Shown piece after piece: positions 47,367 to 56,957 of a stretch of DNA of 64,000 nt. The position numbers and the translations under genes are program-made. The DNA comes from a virus. Position 1 is the first letter of the stretch; every line of letters begins with the position of its first letter. The stretch is taken from the IMG/VR virus record IMGVR_UViG_3300005573_000857, positions 1-64,000 of that record. One strand, written 5' to 3'. A model generated the notes under the pieces. It was not told where the DNA came from. It saw only the letters and a program-made list of their open reading frames with translations, and made no database searches.

Positions 47367-48392
47367 ATGGTTAGAATTGTTAATTGGCTAGTCACTAGAA
47401 AGTGTAATCTTCAATGCTCTTACTGCAGAATTGCTAGGAGCTACGAGTCTCCGAAAGAGTATCCGAAGATAATAGACTTCTACAAGAATGAAGTTAGCCT
47501 TGACTTTATTGTAGAAGCTCTTAGACGATTTAAAAATCATAACCCAGAATGCTTCCATATCTTCTATGGTGGCGAGCCTCTATTGAGGTTAGATTTAAAA
47601 GATATTGTTGCTTTCTGCAATAAAGAAAGCATTAACTATACCGTTATTACGAACGGGACAGAGGAGTTAGAACCATACTTGGAAGAGCTCTTATCCACGA
47701 CGAAGTTAGCTGGTCTCACAACGTCAGTCGATCCAGTAATCTTTTCACGAGAAGAAAGTGAAGACATTCTTAAGAAAAGTTTAGCTGGGTTAGAGCGTCT
47801 CTCTAAGTATAAAGAGCAAGTTGGTGATTTGGTAGCAGAGGTTACTGTTGGCAAAGACAACTTAAAGTTTCTTCATGATCTCACGAGAGAACTTACGTCT
47901 AGAAGAATCACTAGTTCGATTACTTTTATAGACATAGCGAAAAGCCCGTACTACGATTTTTCGAACATAACGGATACTTCTGTCCTTGTCTCTAAAGAAG
48001 AAGCTCTTCCTGTCTTGAACGCTATAGATGATGACGATGATGTAGACGTCCACATGAAGCATACACTTTTACCCAAGCTATACCAAGCTCTTCCGTCTAA
48101 CTTAGATTGTAAGATAGAGGAAAGCGTACATAACCTGACTATTGACAGTGACGGAACAGTGAGACTTTGCTTAAGAATTCGTGGGGTAAAGACACCAGAG
48201 AAGACGATTCTACAATACTTAAATAGTGACGGGTCAATTGGTGACGAACTAAAAGAAAGATTGGCAGAAGACAAGAGAAGCTACTGTAAGCTTTGCAATT
48301 GGACTTGCCCGATCATGAGTTCTCTTGTCGAATGTGGAAGTAGTGATGTAAAATATCTTATCCATTCTGAAAGGAGAGACCAATGGGTATAA
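47367..48392 (+). CDS. Radical SAM enzyme with C-terminal Cys cluster (SPASM/Twitch-like)
   Basis: CNLQCSYC, GGEPL, ITNG; C...IDSDG.V.LC...CKLCNWTC. Confidence 0.85.
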   Translation: MVRIVNWLVTRKCNLQCSYCRIARSYESPKEYPKIIDFYKNEVSLDFIVEALRRFKNHNPECFHIFYGGEPLLRLDLKDIVAFCNKESINYTVITNGTEELEPYLEELLSTTKLAGLTTSVDPVIFSREESEDILKKSLAGLERLSKYKEQVGDLVAEVTVGKDNLKFLHDLTRELTSRRITSSITFIDIAKSPYYDFSNITDTSVLVSKEEALPVLNAIDDDDDVDVHMKHTLLPKLYQALPSNLDCKIEESVHNLTIDSDGTVRLCLRIRGVKTPEKTILQYLNSDGSIGDELKERLAEDKRSYCKLCNWTCPIMSSLVECGSSDVKYLIHSERRDQWV

Positions 48393-48670
48393 TGGAAAAG
48401 GCTTTAACGTTCTTAAGTGCAGCAACCGAAAAAGAGGTGAAAGTTGAGTTTATAAAGAAGGATGGATCAAGAAGAGTAATGAAGTGTACTCTCGATTTTT
48501 CTAAGATTCCAGAAAAGGATAGACCAAAGTCATTTGAGCTGAAGAAGGCTCTTGAGCAGCTTAAGAAAAATAAGATTCTGCACGTCTACGACGTAGAAAA
48601 CCAGGGATGGAGAAGCGTTCCTTTAGACAGAGTCACATCGTTCGTTGTCGATGGCAAAGAATCTTTGTAG
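48383..48670 (+). CDS. WYL-like Sm/SH3 barrel protein
   Basis: VEF.KKDGS.R.M.CTL....VYDVE..GWRS...DRV. Confidence 0.75.
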   Translation: MGIMEKALTFLSAATEKEVKVEFIKKDGSRRVMKCTLDFSKIPEKDRPKSFELKKALEQLKKNKILHVYDVENQGWRSVPLDRVTSFVVDGKESL

Positions 48671-48679
48671 TAAGGAGGA

Positions 48680-49039
48680 ATGATGTTGACAAAGTTTATT
48701 GTTGGAACTCTTAATGTAGACCAGAGCGGAAAGACTATAACTCTTTGTAGAATTGCAAGTGAGAAGCCTGTTCTTACTATTACTAGCGATAGTTTCGAGC
48801 AAGGATCTGACAAATTTACTAGTATAAGAGTTAAAGCTAAGGAAGTAAATGTTGAGACCGAAACTGATAACGATTCGAATGCAGATGACCTTGAAAGCTT
48901 TGTTTTTGAGCTACTTACGAAAGTAGCAGTAGCGAGTAGCACTGTCGCAGATAAGAAGGAGTTCTATACTAATGTACTCGCTACTATAGAAGATTTTCTT
49001 TCCAAGGGGGTTTGTCGTGAGAAAGGAAAAGTCGTTTGA
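48680..49039 (+). CDS. Hypothetical protein
   Basis: AGGAGG SD. Confidence 0.6.
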   Translation: MMLTKFIVGTLNVDQSGKTITLCRIASEKPVLTITSDSFEQGSDKFTSIRVKAKEVNVETETDNDSNADDLESFVFELLTKVAVASSTVADKKEFYTNVLATIEDFLSKGVCREKGKVV

Positions 49040-49412
49040 CAAAATACTTAAGAAGTATGGTCAAGTAAAGACAATATTTTACTATCTTAAAGATGATAGA
49101 ACGAAAAGGCCACATACTACAGTGTGCCTACTTGTTTCGCCAGACGGGCGAATATTGTCTAGAGGAATCTCTATATGCTCTCCGCTAGATTCTTTCCGAA
49201 AGAAGACTGGAAAAGACAAAGCTCTTGGAAGAGCTATAAAGGCCCTTGTACGGAAGATATCTAGCGAACCAATTCAACCTTTCTCTCATTCATTCTCCGG
49301 ATCTGAGGAGAGAATTCGCTATCTCAAAGAAGTAGAGAAAGAATTTGGGTTCAAGTCTACGTATTTGCCAACTGCTAGATATTTTGAGGTAGGACTGCTT
49401 CGAACTGCCTAA
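49017..49412 (+). CDS. Phage Gp49-like protein (possible nucleotide-signal sponge)
   Basis: TVCLL....G....GISIC...DSF....G...AL.RA. Confidence 0.4.
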   Translation: MRKEKSFDKILKKYGQVKTIFYYLKDDRTKRPHTTVCLLVSPDGRILSRGISICSPLDSFRKKTGKDKALGRAIKALVRKISSEPIQPFSHSFSGSEERIRYLKEVEKEFGFKSTYLPTARYFEVGLLRTA

Positions 49413-49420
49413 AACAAACT

Positions 49421-49450
49421 GGGAACTCACTAATTCGTTAGTGAGTTCCC
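49421..49450. promoter_or_regulatory. Perfect 13-bp hairpin with TTCG loop
   Basis: GGGAACTCACTAA-TTCG-TTAGTGAGTTCCC; no + strand U-tract; an A-rich run precedes it. Confidence 0.7.
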
Positions 49451-49492
49451 GTAGATCTAGTCTGGAAGGCAGAGAATAAAAATAATGGAGAG

Positions 49493-50359
49493 GTGTTCAT
49501 GCAGATAGAGAAGTTAGTTCTCGTCGGCTTGGGATCTCTTGGAAGTTTTCTGTGTGAGAAATTATGCAAACTGAGAAAACTTAGGGAAATTACTCTCATT
49601 GACTACGATATCGTAGAACGAAAAAACTTGGAGACAAGTAACTTTAAACAAAGTGACGTTGGTCTACTAAAAGTAGATGCAATGGCCAAGCTTGTAAAAG
49701 CAACTAGCAAAGAGATAAGAGTAAGAAAAATCCCAGAAAAGTTTGTCGAAGGACAAACAAAGATCCCAAAAGCCGATCTTGTATTAGACACTCGAGACTT
49801 TAACTACGATAGAGGAAAGTTAATCGATGCTCGTCTATTCCTTTCCCTACCGTATCTTGTAGTTGACTGCAGGAAAAATGTAACTTACCACAGAAAGTAC
49901 GAAGGAAAGTATCCGTTGAGTATAACGAGAGAAGACATTGTCGATGCCAGTAACCATGCTTACTCTCTTATAGCTAGAGGATACTTAGACCATCTTTTGA
50001 GAAGACAATCAGTCTATACGATAGAGATTGACAAGATTACGAAAGACTTCTTAGAAAGTTCGCATACTTCGTACGATTTTGCTTGCGATATTGACGAAAG
50101 CAGGATTTCAAACATAGTTGCGAATATTCCAGCTGTTCTCGAAATGAACAACCAGGCAGAAGTCGTCGTTTATCTTGGAAGTAAAAAAGATCCAGTCATT
50201 TCAAGAAAGCTTCCGCAAAACTTCTTAAGAACGCCGGATGATGTTTCCTCTTGTTTTCTTTCTATGCTAAAAGGTCTTCCAGACTTTAGGAACTACTTTG
50301 TTGTAGTTTCTAAGAAGGACTTTTGCATAGAACTCATTCCAGAAACTGCTTCCGCATAG
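49493..50359 (+). CDS. ThiF/E1-like adenylyltransferase with possible C-terminal beta-grasp domain
   Basis: LVGLGSLGS, LIDYDIVE.KNL, DVG..KVD, DLVLDTRD. Confidence 0.8.
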   Translation: MFMQIEKLVLVGLGSLGSFLCEKLCKLRKLREITLIDYDIVERKNLETSNFKQSDVGLLKVDAMAKLVKATSKEIRVRKIPEKFVEGQTKIPKADLVLDTRDFNYDRGKLIDARLFLSLPYLVVDCRKNVTYHRKYEGKYPLSITREDIVDASNHAYSLIARGYLDHLLRRQSVYTIEIDKITKDFLESSHTSYDFACDIDESRISNIVANIPAVLEMNNQAEVVVYLGSKKDPVISRKLPQNFLRTPDDVSSCFLSMLKGLPDFRNYFVVVSKKDFCIELIPETASA

Positions 50360-50367
50360 AGGCGAAA

Positions 50368-50751
50368 ATGAACGTAGTCAGAAAAGAAGTAAACATTTAC
50401 CCAAGTAAAGTAAGAATTTACGGCAAGCTCTACAGTGTCGAACCGCGCAGTGAAGAAGTAAAGATAAAGAAAATTACTTTGTACCTAGATAGAGCTAACC
50501 GCTTGACGAAGGTAGTAGTGGACACCAAAGTTCACCCAAACTGCGACCCACGAACGAAAGAGTTTTGTCTTCCAGAAGAAGTTAAGAAATTAGAGTACAA
50601 TGAAACTTTAGTAAAGTTGGTCGGTTCTCTTCTTTCCGTCTGGAATCTAGACAATTGTTTTGCGAAACTCCATTTCTTGAACTATTTTAACTTATGTGAA
50701 GAGGAGGTAGTAGGTAAATGGCACTCAGAGAAGAATTTAAAGCCAAAATAA
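50368..50751 (+). CDS. E2/UBC-like conjugating-enzyme fold protein
   Basis: VHPNCDPRTKEFCL followed by LVGSLLSVWNLDN, matching HPN-x7-C and the LL..xN.d helix of E2s. Confidence 0.6.
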   Translation: MNVVRKEVNIYPSKVRIYGKLYSVEPRSEEVKIKKITLYLDRANRLTKVVVDTKVHPNCDPRTKEFCLPEEVKKLEYNETLVKLVGSLLSVWNLDNCFAKLHFLNYFNLCEEEVVGKWHSEKNLKPK

Positions 50752-50885
50752 GAAACACTGTTTACGAAACAACACACCAGTTTTTCTCTAGTATTAAGCA
50801 GGCAATTAATAATTGTATCGACATGATTGAAGAATATGTAAAAGAAAAGACCGATGAACTCTTCGGTAAGGAGGAGGAAAAATGA
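50718..50885 (+). CDS. 55-aa helical protein (not in ORF track)
   Basis: ATG after GAGGAGG/AGGT: MALREEFKAKIRN...GKEEEK; ATGA overlap with the next gene. Confidence 0.55.
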   Translation: MALREEFKAKIRNTVYETTHQFFSSIKQAINNCIDMIEEYVKEKTDELFGKEEEK

Positions 50886-51097
50886 GTGTTTTCGGTCAAG
50901 AAGCAGTAGAGGAAATTAAGTCTATCGTTAAATCTTGTTTCGACGAAGTGACAAAGAGTGAGAAACAAGAAGCTATTAAGTTAATAGAAGAAAAACTTAG
51001 CAAACTTGTCGCAGACGAGGTGAGTAACTACTTTAGAAAAATTTCTACATATGTTCTATATGGGGAGATTGTCAATAAATTGGAGGAAAAAAAGTAA
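50882..51097 (+). CDS. 71-aa helical protein translationally coupled to RNAP beta' 2
   Basis: GGAGGAGG SD; TAATG overlap. Confidence 0.65.
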   Translation: MSVFGQEAVEEIKSIVKSCFDEVTKSEKQEAIKLIEEKLSKLVADEVSNYFRKISTYVLYGEIVNKLEEKK

Positions 51098-53796
51098 TGC
51101 CAGAACTCTTTAACATTGACGAGTTTTGCAAAGACCTACCAGAAGTGACGAGTTCGAAAATTAAAGAAAAGGGAAAGTTTAGTCCTCACGGGCTTTTTTC
51201 TGAGCAGATATTCGGTCCAGTTACTAACTACACTTGTCAGTGCGGTAAGTACTCTGGACCTTCTTCTCCAGTTGAGAAATGCGACATTTGCGGTGTCGAA
51301 ATAACCTCGTCAATTGAAAGGAGAAGAAGATTCGCCAAAATAGTTCTTCCATTAAAAGTAGTAAATCCGACATTCTACAACTTAATTGCAGTTACAGCTG
51401 GAAGAGTGAAGAGTCTATTAGACACACTAATGAAGGACGAGAAAAGCGTATTGTACAAAGAAGGAGACGAATATGTAGTAGCTCAAACTGCACCTCCGAA
51501 TGTAAAAGTATGGGAAAGATACGAAGCTATGGAAGAACTTATTAGAGGTCTGGCTACTTACACTGTAGAGAACAGTGACCCAGACGTCCCAATCGTTAAG
51601 TCTTGGAAATTCATAAAAGACAACATTGACAAGATGTTTATTAAGAACATTATCGTCCTTCCACCAGACTTGCGACCAATCTCGAAAGCTGGTAATGACG
51701 TGCAGAAAGCTGATCGTATAAACTGGTTTTACAACTTTATTCTGGTTAAGAAAGAGAAAATGAGAGATACTATGTTCGATGTTAACCAGAATAAAGCTCT
51801 CTTTTACGCGTACTTTAAGCAGCTACAGAAGGCTGTAAACGAGCTCTTCGACCACATAATAGAGAAGTTGTCCAAGAAAGAAGGACTAGTTAGAGGGAAC
51901 ATCTTGGGGAAGAGGGTAGATTTCTCTGGAAGAGCAGTGATAGTTCCAAAAGTAACTCTTAACATCGACGAGTGTGGTCTTCCGTACTTTATGCTTTTGG
52001 AAATCTACAAGATGCAGATTGCCAAGCGGCTCGTTGGAACTACCGTAAAAACTCTTAATGAAGCCATAGAGTATGTAGACGAGTGTATTCGAATGAAGAG
52101 CAAAGACCTGCTTGACGTATGTGAAGAGGTTACTAAGCATGAAGTATGTCTGCTAAATCGTCAACCTTCTTTGCACAGACTGAGTTTAGTTGGATTTAAA
52201 ATCAAAGTCTGTCTTGGTGACGTTATTTACCTCCATCCGCTAGTCTGCTCCGGTTTTAATGCAGATTTCGATGGAGACCAGATGGCTGTTTACATTCCCC
52301 TTTCTCCAGAAGCAAAGCAAGAGGTTCGAGAAAAGCTGATGATTACTAAGAACTTCTCGAATCCAGCAAATGCTTCTTTGTCAACTCTTCCAAACCAGGA
52401 CGTAGTCCTTGGTATCTACGCCTTAACTACAAACTCGTTCCCGAATTTAAGAAACTTGGTAGAGTGTAAGGGCAGCTTAGTTACTGAAAGCATGGCTATC
52501 TTTAATAAGTGCTTGCCTGATGACTACCCTTTAGTAAACAAAGTCGTAACGAAGAAAGAGTTAATCGAGATACTAACAGACATAAAAGAGAAGTACGACC
52601 CGGAAACAGTGAGAGTTGTTCTTGACGAAGTAAAGGAGAAAGGGTTCAGGTACTCTACACTTTTCGGAGCTTCATTGTCGCTTCAGTCCTGTTATGTGCC
52701 GGACCATGAAAAAGTAAGAGACGATCTTTACTCACCAAGTGATGTAAAAGAACAGATTGCGAAAGTTTCTGGAAAAGAATCTGAAACTATCTTACGTGAG
52801 AAATTTCCCTATGCCTACATGGTTGAGTCTGGGGCTCGTGGTAGCTGGGACCAAGTTCGTCAGATCGTCTTAACAAGAGGTTTTATTTCGAACTTCAAAG
52901 GACAAATCTTGAAGACTCCAGTAAAGAGAAGTCTTTTGGACGGACTTACTAGAGAAGAGTTCTTCTTGTCTACTTTTGGTTGCAGAAAAGGTCTTCTTGA
53001 TGTTGCACTAAACACTGGAGCATCTGGCTATTTGTCAAGGAAACTAGTGTTTACTGCTGCGAACGCTCTAGTAAGTGAAACAGTTGAAGATTGTGGTACT
53101 ACTGATTTACTTGAAGTTTATGTGGACTCGACTAAGAAAGCTAAGATGCTAATTGGTCGGTACTACAAAGATGCGTCTGGTAAACTCGACAAAATTACGA
53201 AGAAAAACTACGCACAGTTTTTGGGGAAGACTATATTTATAAGGAGCCCAATTTTCTGTCGTAGTCTAGAATTCTGCCACACTTGCTACGGAGATCTGTA
53301 TAAGACTCTGCATAGCCGCTTCGTTGGTGTTATAGCTGCACAAAGCTTAGGAGAGACGAATACTCAGCTAATATTGAGAACGTTCCATACTTCAGGAGTC
53401 GCTGTAGTAAAAGGCGAAGCCTCTCTGAAGCAGAAAGATATAGTAGCAGACTTGAGTGCAGCTTCGAAACTATTACACCAGTTAGAAGGAGTTAACTATA
53501 AAGATTTAGTGCACGATTTGTTCGAAGTCTACAATACTTCTAGAGAAATTTTCTCAGTCCACATTGAAGTTATTGTCTCTGAAATGATGTGGGCTGGAAA
53601 CGTTCTTTGGAGAATGGCGAAAAATAGAGACAAGATAACTCCAACGTACCATAGTGTCCAAAGCGTTCCTGCTAGACAAAGCTGGTTACTTGGTTTCGCT
53701 TTTTCTCATCCGAAGTGGAATTTGCTTAGAGGTGTGCAGTATTCTGGTGAGTACGTTGGTCCAATTGATAAGATGCTAAGAGGCGAGAGAATCTAA
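51097..53796 (+). CDS. Phage RNA polymerase beta'-like subunit, copy 2 (with Zn-binding domain)
   Basis: CQCGKY...CDICGVE, VLPPDLRP, LGKRVDFSGRAVI, NRQPSLHR, NADFDGD, SGARG, RTFH. Confidence 0.95.
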   Translation: MPELFNIDEFCKDLPEVTSSKIKEKGKFSPHGLFSEQIFGPVTNYTCQCGKYSGPSSPVEKCDICGVEITSSIERRRRFAKIVLPLKVVNPTFYNLIAVTAGRVKSLLDTLMKDEKSVLYKEGDEYVVAQTAPPNVKVWERYEAMEELIRGLATYTVENSDPDVPIVKSWKFIKDNIDKMFIKNIIVLPPDLRPISKAGNDVQKADRINWFYNFILVKKEKMRDTMFDVNQNKALFYAYFKQLQKAVNELFDHIIEKLSKKEGLVRGNILGKRVDFSGRAVIVPKVTLNIDECGLPYFMLLEIYKMQIAKRLVGTTVKTLNEAIEYVDECIRMKSKDLLDVCEEVTKHEVCLLNRQPSLHRLSLVGFKIKVCLGDVIYLHPLVCSGFNADFDGDQMAVYIPLSPEAKQEVREKLMITKNFSNPANASLSTLPNQDVVLGIYALTTNSFPNLRNLVECKGSLVTESMAIFNKCLPDDYPLVNKVVTKKELIEILTDIKEKYDPETVRVVLDEVKEKGFRYSTLFGASLSLQSCYVPDHEKVRDDLYSPSDVKEQIAKVSGKESETILREKFPYAYMVESGARGSWDQVRQIVLTRGFISNFKGQILKTPVKRSLLDGLTREEFFLSTFGCRKGLLDVALNTGASGYLSRKLVFTAANALVSETVEDCGTTDLLEVYVDSTKKAKMLIGRYYKDASGKLDKITKKNYAQFLGKTIFIRSPIFCRSLEFCHTCYGDLYKTLHSRFVGVIAAQSLGETNTQLILRTFHTSGVAVVKGEASLKQKDIVADLSAASKLLHQLEGVNYKDLVHDLFEVYNTSREIFSVHIEVIVSEMMWAGNVLWRMAKNRDKITPTYHSVQSVPARQSWLLGFAFSHPKWNLLRGVQYSGEYVGPIDKMLRGERI

Positions 53797-53819
53797 TAAC
53801 TAGAAAGGAGGTCTCTGGA

Positions 53820-56800
53820 TTGAGGATAGTAAATCCGTTTTTTCATCTTAGTGATGGGGGTATCTTCGAACTTAGAGAGAAAGACTATGCGTCAATTGAG
53901 CAGACAGTGAGAGAAATGCTAAAGCCAGCTGAAGAAGCTGGTTTCGTTATAAAAGAGTTTGAGTTGAGAGACCAGAGACCGTCTGTACGAGAACTGATGC
54001 CAACTCTAAAGAAGAATCTGGTAATAGTACTAGAAAAGAACAACTCTGTAGTGAATTTAACTACGCAAATTCCAAAGCTTGTTGACGGAAACTATATTGT
54101 AATTTCTGGAAGGAAGAAGGTACCCCTCTTCCAGTTGTTCGATTTGCCGATTGTTACAAGAGGTAAATCAATAAAGCTACGAACAAATGTTGCAACGTTG
54201 AGTCTAACTGTAAAGGACAAAAAAGGAGAGTCTGACCCCTTTTACGTATCTCTAAATTTCATGAACAAAGACGTTCCCTTTTCTCTCGTCCTGTTTTGCT
54301 GCTACGGATTCGATAGAGTAGTGGACATGTTTGGACTAGATAAACTCACTGAACTTCCAAGTAACTCGGGTCTTCTTGGTAAGTTGGAATGCGATTTCTT
54401 TTCGTACTACAGTGAATCGAAAGAATACACTCAAGAAGACTTTGTGCGAGAGCTTGGAAGATACTACACTTCTTACGATGCGAAAAAGAAAGGTGAAGAA
54501 GTAGTTTACGCGCTCGATCTCATTGCGAAAGTAGACGTTCCATCCTCTAGGTTCTTTACAACGGAGTCTGCTGTCAGTGAGTTATTGCAAGCTCTAAGAA
54601 TTGGTCACATTGACGATACTGACTTCAGAAATAAAAGAATACGCTGTTTCGAGTACATAGTGCTGGCTAAGCTGGCAAGAGACATTTACAACCTCTGTAT
54701 CGCTAGTCGTAACGCTTTGCGCCCAAAGTTTAGTACGAACTCTAAACAAGTTATCTCAGAATGTAAGACTTCGTCAATTATCCAGTACGATCAGTCACTG
54801 AATCCGATAGATGAACTGACAAAACTTAGCAGAGTTAGCTTAGCTGGTCCAGGAGCTTTTACTAAAGAAAATGTCCCAGAGTACTTAAGAGACGTTCATC
54901 CGTCAATGTTTGGTCGGGTGTGTTCTGTGGACACACCAGAAAGAGAGAACTGTGGTGTATTGCAAAGTCTGTTGCCAAAAGTAAAGCTAACTGAGCACAT
55001 GCGGTTCGACGAAGAAGTAGAAGATAAAGCCACAGTTTCGATAGCAGTCTCGATGGTTCCATTTTTAGAGCATGACGACCAAACTAGGTTGCAGATGGCT
55101 TCATCGCAAATGAGACAGGCTGTTACTCTTCTAAAAGTAGAGAAGCCCTACATTCGTTCTGGGTGCGAAGGACTGTACACAGATTATTCGTCTTTCATAA
55201 AAAGAGCTAGAAAGAATGGAGAGATCGTATATCGCGATGAGTCGTTCTGTGTGGTAGTATATGACGACAAAGATTTCGACATCTTTAAGGTCGGATTCAG
55301 GAAAACTCAGACAGAAAATATAGACTTCCTAGTTTGTAAGCATAAAGTTGGAGATAAAGTAAAAGCTGGCGATATAGTAGTTGAAAGCTTCTTCTGCACA
55401 AACGGAGAAATAAAGATAGGAAAGAATTTGTTAACGGTTTTAGCTACATGGCATGGCTTGAATTACGAAGATGCTATTCTAATTTCAGAAGAAGTTAGAG
55501 ACCGAGGTGATTTTACTTCTTTACACTTTATAGACTTATCCTTCGTCCTTCCGCCGAACAAGATACTTCTGGATTTGTCAGATGATAGCAAAGGAAAAAC
55601 TTATAGACCACTTCCGACTCCTTATAGCAAGATCGTTGTAAAGAGGAAGGATAAGGTCTTTGACATGCAAAGCGATAACGAAGTGCAAGAGGAAGTAATA
55701 GAAGACTATTCAGTTGTTGCTTTAGAGAAGGGTCAGAAGTATGCGGTAGTAAAGGAGATGTATGTAGATAATGATGTAGAAAAAGTTTTCGAAGAAGAAC
55801 AAGTTTATAGGACTGAGAGAGACGTAAAAATCTACTCTGTAAATATCTACGCTAACAAATGGTACGATAAAGTTCGCCCATTTGACGAGTGGGTGCAAGA
55901 AACGATAAGAATGCAACAGAAAAGAGAAAGAGATTTTCACGAAAGTCTATACAAGTTTATTCCAAGGGAAAAAGTGCAGGAGTTCATTCGAGATAATGGA
56001 TTAAACAAGTTCACTTCTCAAGGAAGCTACAGAATAAACGGAGAGCTTGTTAATGGAATGTACATAGAGATTCTTGGAGTATATGAAAAGCCGATAAACG
56101 TAGGCGACAAAATTGGAAATCGGCATGGTAATAAGGGAGTTGTAAATATTCTCCCAAAAGAAAAAATGCCGTTACTAGAAAATGGACGGCATGCCGAAGT
56201 ATGTGTAAGTCCGATGTCTACTATCTCGAGAATGAACGTAGGCCAGATCTTCGAGATGCATCTAGCGATGTCTTTACAAGACCTTAAGGCTAAGCTACTG
56301 AAAATGATAGAAGATGGAAAAAGTCAAGAAGAAATGAGAAAGTATCTTCTCGACTACATAAAGATAGTAGATGCTACGAAAGATAACTGGTTCTACAATC
56401 AGTTTGAGAGTCAGTTAGGTGTAATCGACAAGAAGTTTGTAGATGACCTTACTCTAGTGCAACCCCCGTTTGAGTCCTGTTCAAGAGAACAAGTTCTAGA
56501 AGCTTGCAAGTATACGAATACTCCACTTGAGTGTTCGATTTACGATCCAATAACGGGAGAGAAAGTTCTCAACAAAGTTGGATTTGGGTACATGTACTTC
56601 TTCAAGATGGTCCATATTGCCGAAGACAGGTTAGCTGCTAGAGGCATCGGAACGTATTCGAAAAGAACTCTACAACCTCTTGGAGGGAGAAGGAACAGAG
56701 GTGGACAAAGAGTTGGAGAAATGGAAATGTGTTGCTTTATAGCTCACGATGCTACAGAAAACTTGTACGAAACTCTCACTACAAAGTCCGATTCTATCGA

Positions 56801-56957
56801 CCTCAAGAACGAATACTTAAGAACCATTCTCGGATCGGACTTCGTTAGGAGACCCGATAAGATCGACGATGTCCCAGAGGCTGTAAAACTGCTAGACTCT
56901 TATTGCTTAGTAGTCGGTGTAAAGACGAAAAGCGATAAAAAGGAGGGTAGTGAATGA
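53820..56957 (+). CDS. Phage RNA polymerase beta-like subunit, copy 2
   Basis: RDVHPS.FGR.C...TPE..NCG, PFLEHDD..R..M...MRQA, NYEDA, GDKIGNRHGNKG, KMVH, GGQRVGEME, T.KSD. Confidence 0.95.
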   Translation: MRIVNPFFHLSDGGIFELREKDYASIEQTVREMLKPAEEAGFVIKEFELRDQRPSVRELMPTLKKNLVIVLEKNNSVVNLTTQIPKLVDGNYIVISGRKKVPLFQLFDLPIVTRGKSIKLRTNVATLSLTVKDKKGESDPFYVSLNFMNKDVPFSLVLFCCYGFDRVVDMFGLDKLTELPSNSGLLGKLECDFFSYYSESKEYTQEDFVRELGRYYTSYDAKKKGEEVVYALDLIAKVDVPSSRFFTTESAVSELLQALRIGHIDDTDFRNKRIRCFEYIVLAKLARDIYNLCIASRNALRPKFSTNSKQVISECKTSSIIQYDQSLNPIDELTKLSRVSLAGPGAFTKENVPEYLRDVHPSMFGRVCSVDTPERENCGVLQSLLPKVKLTEHMRFDEEVEDKATVSIAVSMVPFLEHDDQTRLQMASSQMRQAVTLLKVEKPYIRSGCEGLYTDYSSFIKRARKNGEIVYRDESFCVVVYDDKDFDIFKVGFRKTQTENIDFLVCKHKVGDKVKAGDIVVESFFCTNGEIKIGKNLLTVLATWHGLNYEDAILISEEVRDRGDFTSLHFIDLSFVLPPNKILLDLSDDSKGKTYRPLPTPYSKIVVKRKDKVFDMQSDNEVQEEVIEDYSVVALEKGQKYAVVKEMYVDNDVEKVFEEEQVYRTERDVKIYSVNIYANKWYDKVRPFDEWVQETIRMQQKRERDFHESLYKFIPREKVQEFIRDNGLNKFTSQGSYRINGELVNGMYIEILGVYEKPINVGDKIGNRHGNKGVVNILPKEKMPLLENGRHAEVCVSPMSTISRMNVGQIFEMHLAMSLQDLKAKLLKMIEDGKSQEEMRKYLLDYIKIVDATKDNWFYNQFESQLGVIDKKFVDDLTLVQPPFESCSREQVLEACKYTNTPLECSIYDPITGEKVLNKVGFGYMYFFKMVHIAEDRLAARGIGTYSKRTLQPLGGRRNRGGQRVGEMEMCCFIAHDATENLYETLTTKSDSIDLKNEYLRTILGSDFVRRPDKIDDVPEAVKLLDSYCLVVGVKTKSDKKEGSE

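Follow-up and report, generated by a model that had tools for sequence, protein, structure and literature searches.

Organization of the locus

The stretch of DNA analysed here, hereafter the window, comprises the first 64 kb of a 91.9-kb viral contig (IMG/VR record IMGVR_UViG_3300005573_000857), whose completeness is estimated by CheckV at 29%; the source phage is probably a jumbo phage of ~300 kb. Two adjacent genes of this window, coding for an E1-like and an E2-like protein, had been proposed in an original prediction to form a phage-encoded ubiquitin-like conjugation system, heading the operon of a second phage RNA polymerase (RNAP). As described there, both open reading frames (ORFs) are present on the plus strand, ORF1 at 49493-50359 (288 aa) and ORF2 at 50368-50751 (127 aa), and 8 bases separate the TAG stop of the former (50357-50359) from the ATG of the latter (50368). 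Of the ORF1 boundaries, only the predicted GTG start at 49493 probably has to be revised. ATG 49499 is more likely the true start, since it lies 8 nt beyond a ribosome-binding site, GGAGAGG at 49484-49490, and since both the ESM Atlas record and a 286-aa database protein 99% identical to ORF1 begin at this position. The pair comprises the following elements:

49493-50104, plus strand: ThiF/MoeB-type adenylation domain of the E1-like gene, residues 1 to ~204, with G12/G14/G17, D37, K60 and D99/D102, and with T48 at the position of MoeB Arg73
50033-50098, plus strand: variable low-confidence linker of the E1-like gene, residues 181-202, with an AlphaFold local confidence score (pLDDT) below 50, gapped and variable in the family alignment
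50105-50356, plus strand: extra C-terminal domain of the E1-like gene, residues ~205-288, delimited by DSSP on the AlphaFold model, with the tail ELIPETASA at 50330-50356
50368-50751, plus strand: E2-like gene of 127 aa, a minimal UBC fold lacking the N-terminal helix; HPN occupies 50533-50541 and Cys67, the candidate catalytic residue, 50566-50568

The downstream gene encodes a minimal HPN-type E2

The E2 assignment of ORF2 had been founded on two segments, HPNCDPRTKEFCL and then LVGSLLSVWNLDN, and both are indeed present, with H56-P57-N58 followed by C67 nine positions after the Asn. ORF2 has no hit in Pfam, including UQ_con and Prok-E2_A to E, and none in NCBIfam, and a word-based homologue search returned ORF2 alone. 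Its relatives were reached via synteny: in related viral contigs, the homologue of ORF2 immediately follows the E1-like gene. In the resulting alignment of 35 sequences, which share 15-32% identity, the only invariant columns are P12, H56, P57, N58 and C67, and a single relative matches UQ_con (E 0.055). An exhaustive profile search then gave 359 cluster representatives (clusters at 50% identity). Among the best 150 of these 359, the His is kept in 150, the Pro in 146, the Asn in 148 and the Cys in 149, a conservation far beyond chance, and the family profile aligns its HPN...C with those of UBE2U and Pex4. The HPN-type E2 family thus defined has hundreds of members and is absent from Pfam.

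The AlphaFold-type model of ORF2 (pLDDT 89.6) adopts a UBC fold. When it was compared with 48,161 PDB representatives, E2/UEV proteins made up 22 of the top 24 matches and the majority of the 50 matches listed, which include the bacterial proteins CdnG-E2, BubB and Cap2; a search of the BFVD viral structures gave no meaningful match. Residues 1-110 of the model superpose on the UBC core after helix 1, and the N-terminal helix of canonical E2s is absent. A PADLOC match of ORF2 to JAB (E 0.003, residues 17-55) was rejected, since this protein carries no HxH/JAMM motif and its fold matches are E2s. Four longer proteins of 237-255 aa (P0064, P0136, P0194 and P0199) match the E2-family profile twice, i.e. 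contain tandem double E2 domains.

The upstream gene encodes a ThiF/MoeB-type adenylation domain

The assignment of ORF1 to the ThiF/E1 superfamily is well founded at the levels of sequence, fold and nucleotide-site residues. Residues 7-103 match Pfam ThiF (PF00899) with E 2.5e-14, and the Cap2 "E1-E2" models of PADLOC match the same part with E down to 2e-11. The motifs GLGSLG, DYDIVERKNL, KVD (containing K60) and DLVLD, quoted in the original prediction, are all in place. Fifty-two full-length homologues from metagenomes share 31-38% identity with ORF1 and all are 280-314 aa long. Searched against the PDB, the family profile matches MoeB best (2.5e-11) and MccB at 7e-11; in sequence and fold taken together, the best matches of the adenylation domain include MoeB, MccB, PaaA, ThiF and TcdA.

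The ORF1 model has the Rossmann-type adenylation fold of MoeB, ThiF and E1, and its nucleotide site can be read directly against MoeB: G12/G14/G17 correspond to G38/G40/G43, D37 to D62, K60 to K86, D99 to D127 and D102 to D130. Across the family, no variation is seen at G12/G14/G17, D37, K60 and D99, and D102 is kept in at least 90% of the sequences. Only two cysteines are conserved in the family, C100 of the LDCRD motif, replaced by Thr in the window, and C126 at the start of the crossover loop. In the fold comparison, the complete MoeB and ThiF chains are accounted for by residues 1 to ~206 of the model. Since these chains end there, residues 205-288 represent an addition and not the usual ThiF/MoeB C-terminal subdomain.

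The E1-like protein carries an extra C-terminal domain with a conserved tail

In the full-length AlphaFold model, the disordered linker is followed by a helix and then by a beta-beta-alpha-beta-beta arrangement (DSSP: H208-221, E224-229, E234-240, H248-259, E268-273 and E278-283), with pLDDT mostly 80-93. This domain falls outside the region aligning to any ThiF/E1 structure, and whole-model fold searches cover residues 1-204 only. Its best-conserved part is the tail, with the consensus ELIPETGAA (ETG[AGS]A); all 41 diverse sequences stop at the same point, and the terminal Ala is invariant in both the 41-sequence and the 35-sequence sets. The conservation of a C-terminal Gly or Ala, which had been suggested as a check, is found, as an Ala: the last residue is never Gly in this family, nor does the chain end in Gly-Gly. 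The window itself ends in ETASA and its closest relative, the locus L002, in AEQAVA, so that the terminal Ala alone is strict.

The secondary structure and the tail would fit a beta-grasp modifier, as originally proposed. The 41-sequence profile of the domain has no match in the PDB or Pfam, ThiS, MoaD and ubiquitin included; hhalign of the domain against the own ubiquitin-like protein (Ubl) of this phage lineage gave a probability of 0.1; two ESM Atlas look-ups retrieved no beta-grasp families, the Atlas's own model being of low confidence; and a search for short stand-alone homologues returned essentially none.

These features bear on the possibility, doubtful in our opinion, that the two genes are a self-contained system, in which the C-terminal domain would act as a built-in MoaD-like modifier. 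The E1-like protein would then adenylate its own terminal Ala, in the same or in a partner subunit, and the acyl group would pass to Cys67 of ORF2 and onto a target or onto the protein itself. MoaD-type proteins have a PxTGG tail, which the consensus PETGAA resembles. The location of the domain beyond a complete ThiF/MoeB core and after a disordered linker, its predicted beta-beta-alpha-beta-beta order, and an extreme C-terminus which is its most conserved part, with a fixed end point and an invariant last Ala, all argue for such a role. On the other hand, neither sequence nor profile comparison links the domain to ThiS, MoaD, ubiquitin or the lineage Ubl, stand-alone homologues are essentially missing, and the tail ends in Ala instead of Gly-Gly, with no strict position besides this Ala in view of the deviant ends of L002 and the window. 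The conserved AA-COOH end could also be read as an ssrA-like ClpX degron. The likelihood of this is low, since the penultimate residue varies (A/S/G) whereas the E-T-G upstream of it is conserved.

The pair is part of a conserved cassette in related phages

A scan of IMG/VR gave 71 loci on contigs of up to 269 kb, all of which were annotated with hidden Markov models (HMMs). The two genes of the pair lie next to each other in about 60 of the 65 viral loci, all of them uncultured, and in at least 30 loci the start of the E2 gene overlaps or abuts the stop of the E1-like gene. Homologues of the RNAP beta' and beta genes, 45-57% identical, lie downstream of the pair in 64 related loci. The predicted synteny of the two genes and their position ahead of beta'/beta thus hold in the relatives, in most of which two small ORFs lie in between.

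The common gene order is WYL_2, a small ORF, a ~850-aa Prok-E2_D protein, JAB, a second ThiF protein (ThiF2), Ubl, X, in some cases Y, E1-like, HPN-type E2, two small ORFs, beta' and beta. Prok-E2_D, JAB, ThiF2 and Ubl are all present in about 55 related loci. The Prok-E2_D protein is matched in L007 with E 2e-6, above the Pfam cut-off, and the peptidase matches Prok-JAB, with PRTRC_A as its best NCBIfam match. ThiF2, of ~230 aa, is an E1 of the canonical type: it possesses NLxRQ and VDNH as well as a conserved Cys loop, MSCEEL. The free Ubl is composed of a Rho_N head and a ThiS/MoaD-like body and ends in ...LEFLKPAGKKG, in some loci with 1-5 extra residues, so that the end reads KG or, for example, KGC. 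Since relatives possess this free Ubl, the obvious modifier of the lineage is a separate protein and not the tail of the E1-like protein. The upstream module of the relatives owns an E1, an E2_D, a Ubl and a JAB, and the second E1-E2 pair would be left without a modifier unless the C-terminal domain serves as one, a point in favour of the self-contained system.

Among 50,697 GenBank phage records, neither the locus DNA (blastn, distant mode) nor ORF1 and ORF2 (protein searches) found a match, and beta' is only 26-29% identical to its counterparts in cultured phages. A tail-pattern scan of the prokaryote genomes of 185,579 species gave no member of the E1-like or E2 family and retrieved only an unrelated JAB/E1 operon of Verrucomicrobia. 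This operon (L073:6107-8837, from a Verrucomicrobiaceae metagenome-assembled genome) encodes three proteins, namely a JAB-like one with HSHP, one of 188 aa and one of 439 aa in which an extra domain precedes an E1 domain; it looks like a classical bacterial E1/JAB conjugation operon, unrelated to the phage cassette.

Several loci vary the cassette. In the long JABs of L028 (2590-4125) and L007 (3391-4764), which measure 458-512 aa, the C-terminal region is rich in Cys and gives weak matches of the PHD, C1 and zinc-ribbon-like types at ~326-448, possibly a treble-clef or RING-like E3 module fused to the peptidase; the JAB of L002 (343 aa) is devoid of this region. In the subclade L047, L050 and L053, the E1-like tail reads ELLPETGGA and a non-homologous small gene (MSD[IL]FSEEMKKE...) replaces the HPN-type E2; L047 nonetheless has JAB, ThiF2 and Ubl upstream. 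In L064 (5638-6867), a 409-aa ORF joins a Rho_N head and the first part of a Ubl to the E1-like protein, with the tail ILIPAIGGA. It was rejected as Rosetta-stone evidence, since it contains a truncated Ubl without the Lys-Gly end. The gene that follows cannot be recognised as an E2, and L064 may represent a genuine fusion or a degenerate locus.

In the window, the pair is flanked by the following features:

48383-48670, in the window: WYL_2 gene, the conserved upstream flank
49017-49412, plus strand: gene X, 131 aa, without an assigned function, the conserved immediate upstream neighbour of the E1-like gene
49421-49450, no strand: hairpin with a 13-bp stem, within the 80 bp that separate X from the E1-like gene, from a terminator scan
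50718-51097, plus strand: two small ORFs of 55 and 71 aa, both helical, placed after the E2-like gene and before beta'
51097-56957, plus strand: beta' (899 aa) and beta (1045 aa) of the second phage RNAP, directly downstream of the pair

The ORF of gene X matches an HMM made from the X proteins of the relatives with E 3e-28. In 30 loci X is placed between Ubl and the E1-like gene; it has no Pfam or NCBIfam family match, and its PHROG matches are only to groups of unknown function. The hairpin has a perfect 13-bp stem, GGGAACTCACTAA...TTAGTGAGTTCCC, with a T-run on the minus-strand side only, the neighbouring genes being all on the plus strand. A pair of small ORFs occupies the same position in 43-58 loci, i.e. 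in most relatives, and the HMMs built from them match the two ORFs of the window weakly (E 8e-4 to 1e-2). Just upstream of WYL_2, the segment 47017-48392 encodes a 111-aa protein ending in Gly and then a radical SAM enzyme. A homologue of the radical SAM gene is found at the edge of one related locus only (L007), which places it outside the conserved cassette.

A radical SAM gene 1 kb upstream, together with the presence of MoeB, MccB, PaaA, ThiF and TcdA among the best matches of the adenylation domain, raises the question of a ThiF chemistry other than protein tagging. The E1-like protein would then form a sulfur-carrier thiocarboxylate or modify a peptide C-terminus in the manner of MccB or PaaA, with the E2-like protein as a scaffold. 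This is very improbable: an invariant HPN...Cys in a UBC fold marks trans-thioesterification and not sulfur transfer, the conserved neighbours of the pair include no rhodanese, cysteine desulfurase or peptide precursor, and the radical SAM gene does not belong to the cassette.

The source phage carries a reduced form of the cassette

In the window, WYL_2 and X flank only one ORF of 119 aa, without detectable homologue, and the ~5-kb block of Prok-E2_D, JAB, ThiF2 and Ubl seen in L002 (15-5868), L007 and L004 is absent. HMMs from the relatives, used at relaxed settings, and tblastn found none of these four genes in the 92-kb contig, ThiF2 weakly matching ORF1 only; the earlier caveat that no JAB protease is visible thus extends to the whole contig. 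Besides the pair, X is the sole cassette gene kept. The absence of the block looks like a lineage-specific deletion or replacement. Despite it, the pair is intact and keeps all the family-invariant residues, and a copy of ORF1 with 99% identity exists on other contigs. At this locus, the source phage therefore carries a natural reduced form of the full cassette. Since the pair is intact without the block, either the block has moved to the unsequenced ~70% of the genome or the pair persists alone; retention of a complete pair when the Ubl block is gone is what a self-contained system would lead one to expect.

Loss of the E2_D-JAB-E1-Ubl block could instead have left a functionless, drifting remnant. 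The gap between the conserved WYL_2 and X, and the fact that both the E1-like tail and the C-terminal motif of the E2 stray from their consensus in the window, are consistent with such decay. It is nevertheless improbable, as both ORFs are intact and keep residues that are invariant in families only 27-43% (E1) and 15-32% (E2) identical to them. Moreover, the 99%-identical copy recurs on other contigs, and the closest relative, L002, has a deviant tail yet a full cassette.

Proposed function of the pair

Collectively, these data indicate that the two genes are probably the E1-like and HPN-type E2 members of a ubiquitin-like conjugation cassette specific to viruses, which has a fixed place ahead of the second RNAP genes in an uncultured jumbo-phage clade. 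ORF1 would bind ATP and adenylate a C-terminal carboxylate; the acyl group would then move to Cys67 of ORF2 and, further, to an amine on a target protein. In the relatives, the substrate would most likely be the free Ubl, which the upstream-encoded JAB peptidase and canonical E1 would prepare. In the source phage, the pair would either use components from the unsequenced ~70% of the genome or act alone on the tail of the E1-like protein. The fixed place ahead of beta'/beta suggests co-expression with the second polymerase and carries no information on the target. As for the conjugation system originally proposed, its enzymes and their synteny hold, while the free Ubl, canonical E1, JAB and giant second E2 found upstream in relatives, and absent from the window, had been missed.

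Several observations weigh against this assignment. The arginine of the NLxRQ motif (MoeB R73) is replaced by T48 in the window and by Asn in most relatives, a basic residue, K52 (or R in relatives), being found four positions further; no Zn-binding CxxC pairs exist in ORF1 or its family alignment, so both caveats of the original prediction stand; and the crossover-loop region has no cysteine beyond C126, none being present in residues 127-145 of ORF1. From these three absences, the E1-like protein may be a non-catalytic partner. The tail of the window, ETASA, departs from the family consensus, possibly through relaxed constraint after the loss of partner genes, and so does the C-terminal motif of ORF2, WNLDNCFAKLHF versus FNLDDCYFTPW, for which relaxed constraint is again possible. 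The absence of Ubl, JAB and the main E1 holds for 92 kb, i.e. ~29% of the genome. Finally, every enzymatic step of the proposed conjugation is a prediction.

Co-folding of ORF1 and ORF2 gave a score of 0.58 against 0.00 for the best of three controls, with at least 58% of contacts agreeing between runs and partner pLDDT of at least 76. In calibration, 58 of 80 solved complexes and 2 of 110 mismatched pairs attained this mark, and scores up to 0.60 comprised 7 of the 80 complexes and both mismatches. The co-fold thus lends weak support to the pairing of the two predicted structures; since E1-E2 complexes have already been solved, the pass may reflect likeness to them.

This result can be considered along with a further explanation, in which the E1-like protein is an auxiliary or non-catalytic subunit. 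It would form with ThiF2 a pair comparable to the inactive and active adenylation domains of eukaryotic E1s, and its C-terminal domain would be UFD-like and recruit the E2, the partners of the source-phage protein being encoded elsewhere. The UFD (ubiquitin-fold domain) of canonical E1s is a C-terminal beta-grasp-like domain on a flexible hinge, and the extra domain occupies the same position. Relatives always encode two ThiF paralogues a few genes apart, of which only ThiF2 has the NLxRQ arginine and MSCEEL, and the weak co-fold score is in line with an ORF1-ORF2 contact. We nevertheless regard an auxiliary role as rather unlikely. Inactive adenylation domains usually lose the GxGxxG, the Lys and the Asp residues for ribose and Mg, all of which are intact here; a conserved free C-terminus is not a feature of UFDs, whereas conservation in this domain is highest in the tail; the E2 lacks the N-terminal helix by which canonical E2s bind the UFD; and the 92 kb of the source phage contain no ThiF2. 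In addition, the co-fold reported no interface.

Three readings of the E1-like protein remain: a working E1 serving the HPN-type E2 with the free Ubl, an activator of its own tail, or an auxiliary subunit of ThiF2. Three observations favour self-tail activation over an auxiliary role, namely that the free C-terminus is conserved, that the nucleotide site is intact and that the pair has survived in this phage. Self-tail activation is held back by the missing arginine, a finger which known E1s require for adenylation, by the lack of a Ubl-like sequence signal and by the incomplete genome. In its fullest form, which we put forward only tentatively and consider unlikely, the pair would be a complete minimal two-gene system: the E1-like protein would activate its own invariant Ala, hand itself to the helix-less E2 and be joined to a protein of the phage or of the host, such as a component of the RNAP encoded downstream. 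If this is true, the source phage, without the Ubl/E1/JAB/E2_D block, would be the natural proof of the pair working alone.

Relation to known systems

Operon type 6d of Iyer, Burroughs and Aravind (2006; PMC1779556) consists of a Ubl, a JAB, an E1-like and an E2-like protein, and the same study reports Ubl-ThiF fusions that occur alongside a second, solo ThiS. This type and the PRTRC cassette of plasmids and integrative and conjugative elements are the systems most similar to the upstream block of the relatives, with PRTRC_A/Prok-JAB, PRTRC_ThiF, Prok-E2_D/PRTRC_B and a ThiS/MoaD-like Ubl; the matches of the relatives fall below the curated cut-offs save for Prok-E2_D in L007. All four genes are lacking from the window, as from the 92-kb contig searched, which therefore contains no complete PRTRC-type cassette. 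Furthermore, the PRTRC models hold no counterpart of the HPN-type E2 or of the E1-like protein with its extra tail domain.

In enzymology, the closest systems are CBASS Cap2/Cap3 (PMC10097602), Bil and Bub (PMC11601596). These are host-encoded, whereas the phage pair is encoded by a virus, with E1 and E2 as separate small proteins. The phage E2 also differs by a eukaryote-like HPN and by the lack of the N-terminal helix, and the E1-like protein by the absent arginine finger and the additional C-terminal domain; no JAB or other protease is found in the phage contig.

With MoeB-MoaD, ThiF-ThiS and ThiS-ThiF fusions, the pair shares the ThiF fold and, as in the fusions, a small domain with a conserved tail is attached to an adenylating enzyme. 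In the known ThiS-ThiF fusions, however, the Ubl is N-terminal, while the phage domain lies at the C-terminus, ends in Ala, does not resemble ThiS or MoaD in sequence and goes together with an E2. Eukaryotic E1s (UBA3, SAE2, Uba1) have in common with the phage protein an adenylation domain, a hinge, a small C-terminal domain and an HPN-type E2 partner, and the two ThiF paralogues of the relatives recall their inactive/active adenylation pair. Unlike in them, no catalytic cysteine domain is recognised in the phage E1-like protein, its conserved free C-terminus has no equivalent in UFDs, and its E2 is without helix 1.

In the literature searched, whose coverage is incomplete, we found no description of a phage-owned ubiquitin-like conjugation system; bacterial systems appear there as host weapons against phages (CBASS Cap2/3, Bil, Bub). 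Nor do a jumbo-phage survey and the literature searched describe ownership by a virus, a layout with two E1s and two E2s, an HPN-type E2 family devoid of helix 1 or an E1-like protein with such a tail. What is new is the reduced form, which keeps only the E1-like/E2 pair of the cassette. It poses a question in two proteins, namely whether, and on which substrate, conjugation can be carried out by an E1-like protein without an arginine finger and an E2 of 127 residues. The answer bears on the tagging by phages of their own or host proteins and on the minimum size of an E1-E2 system.

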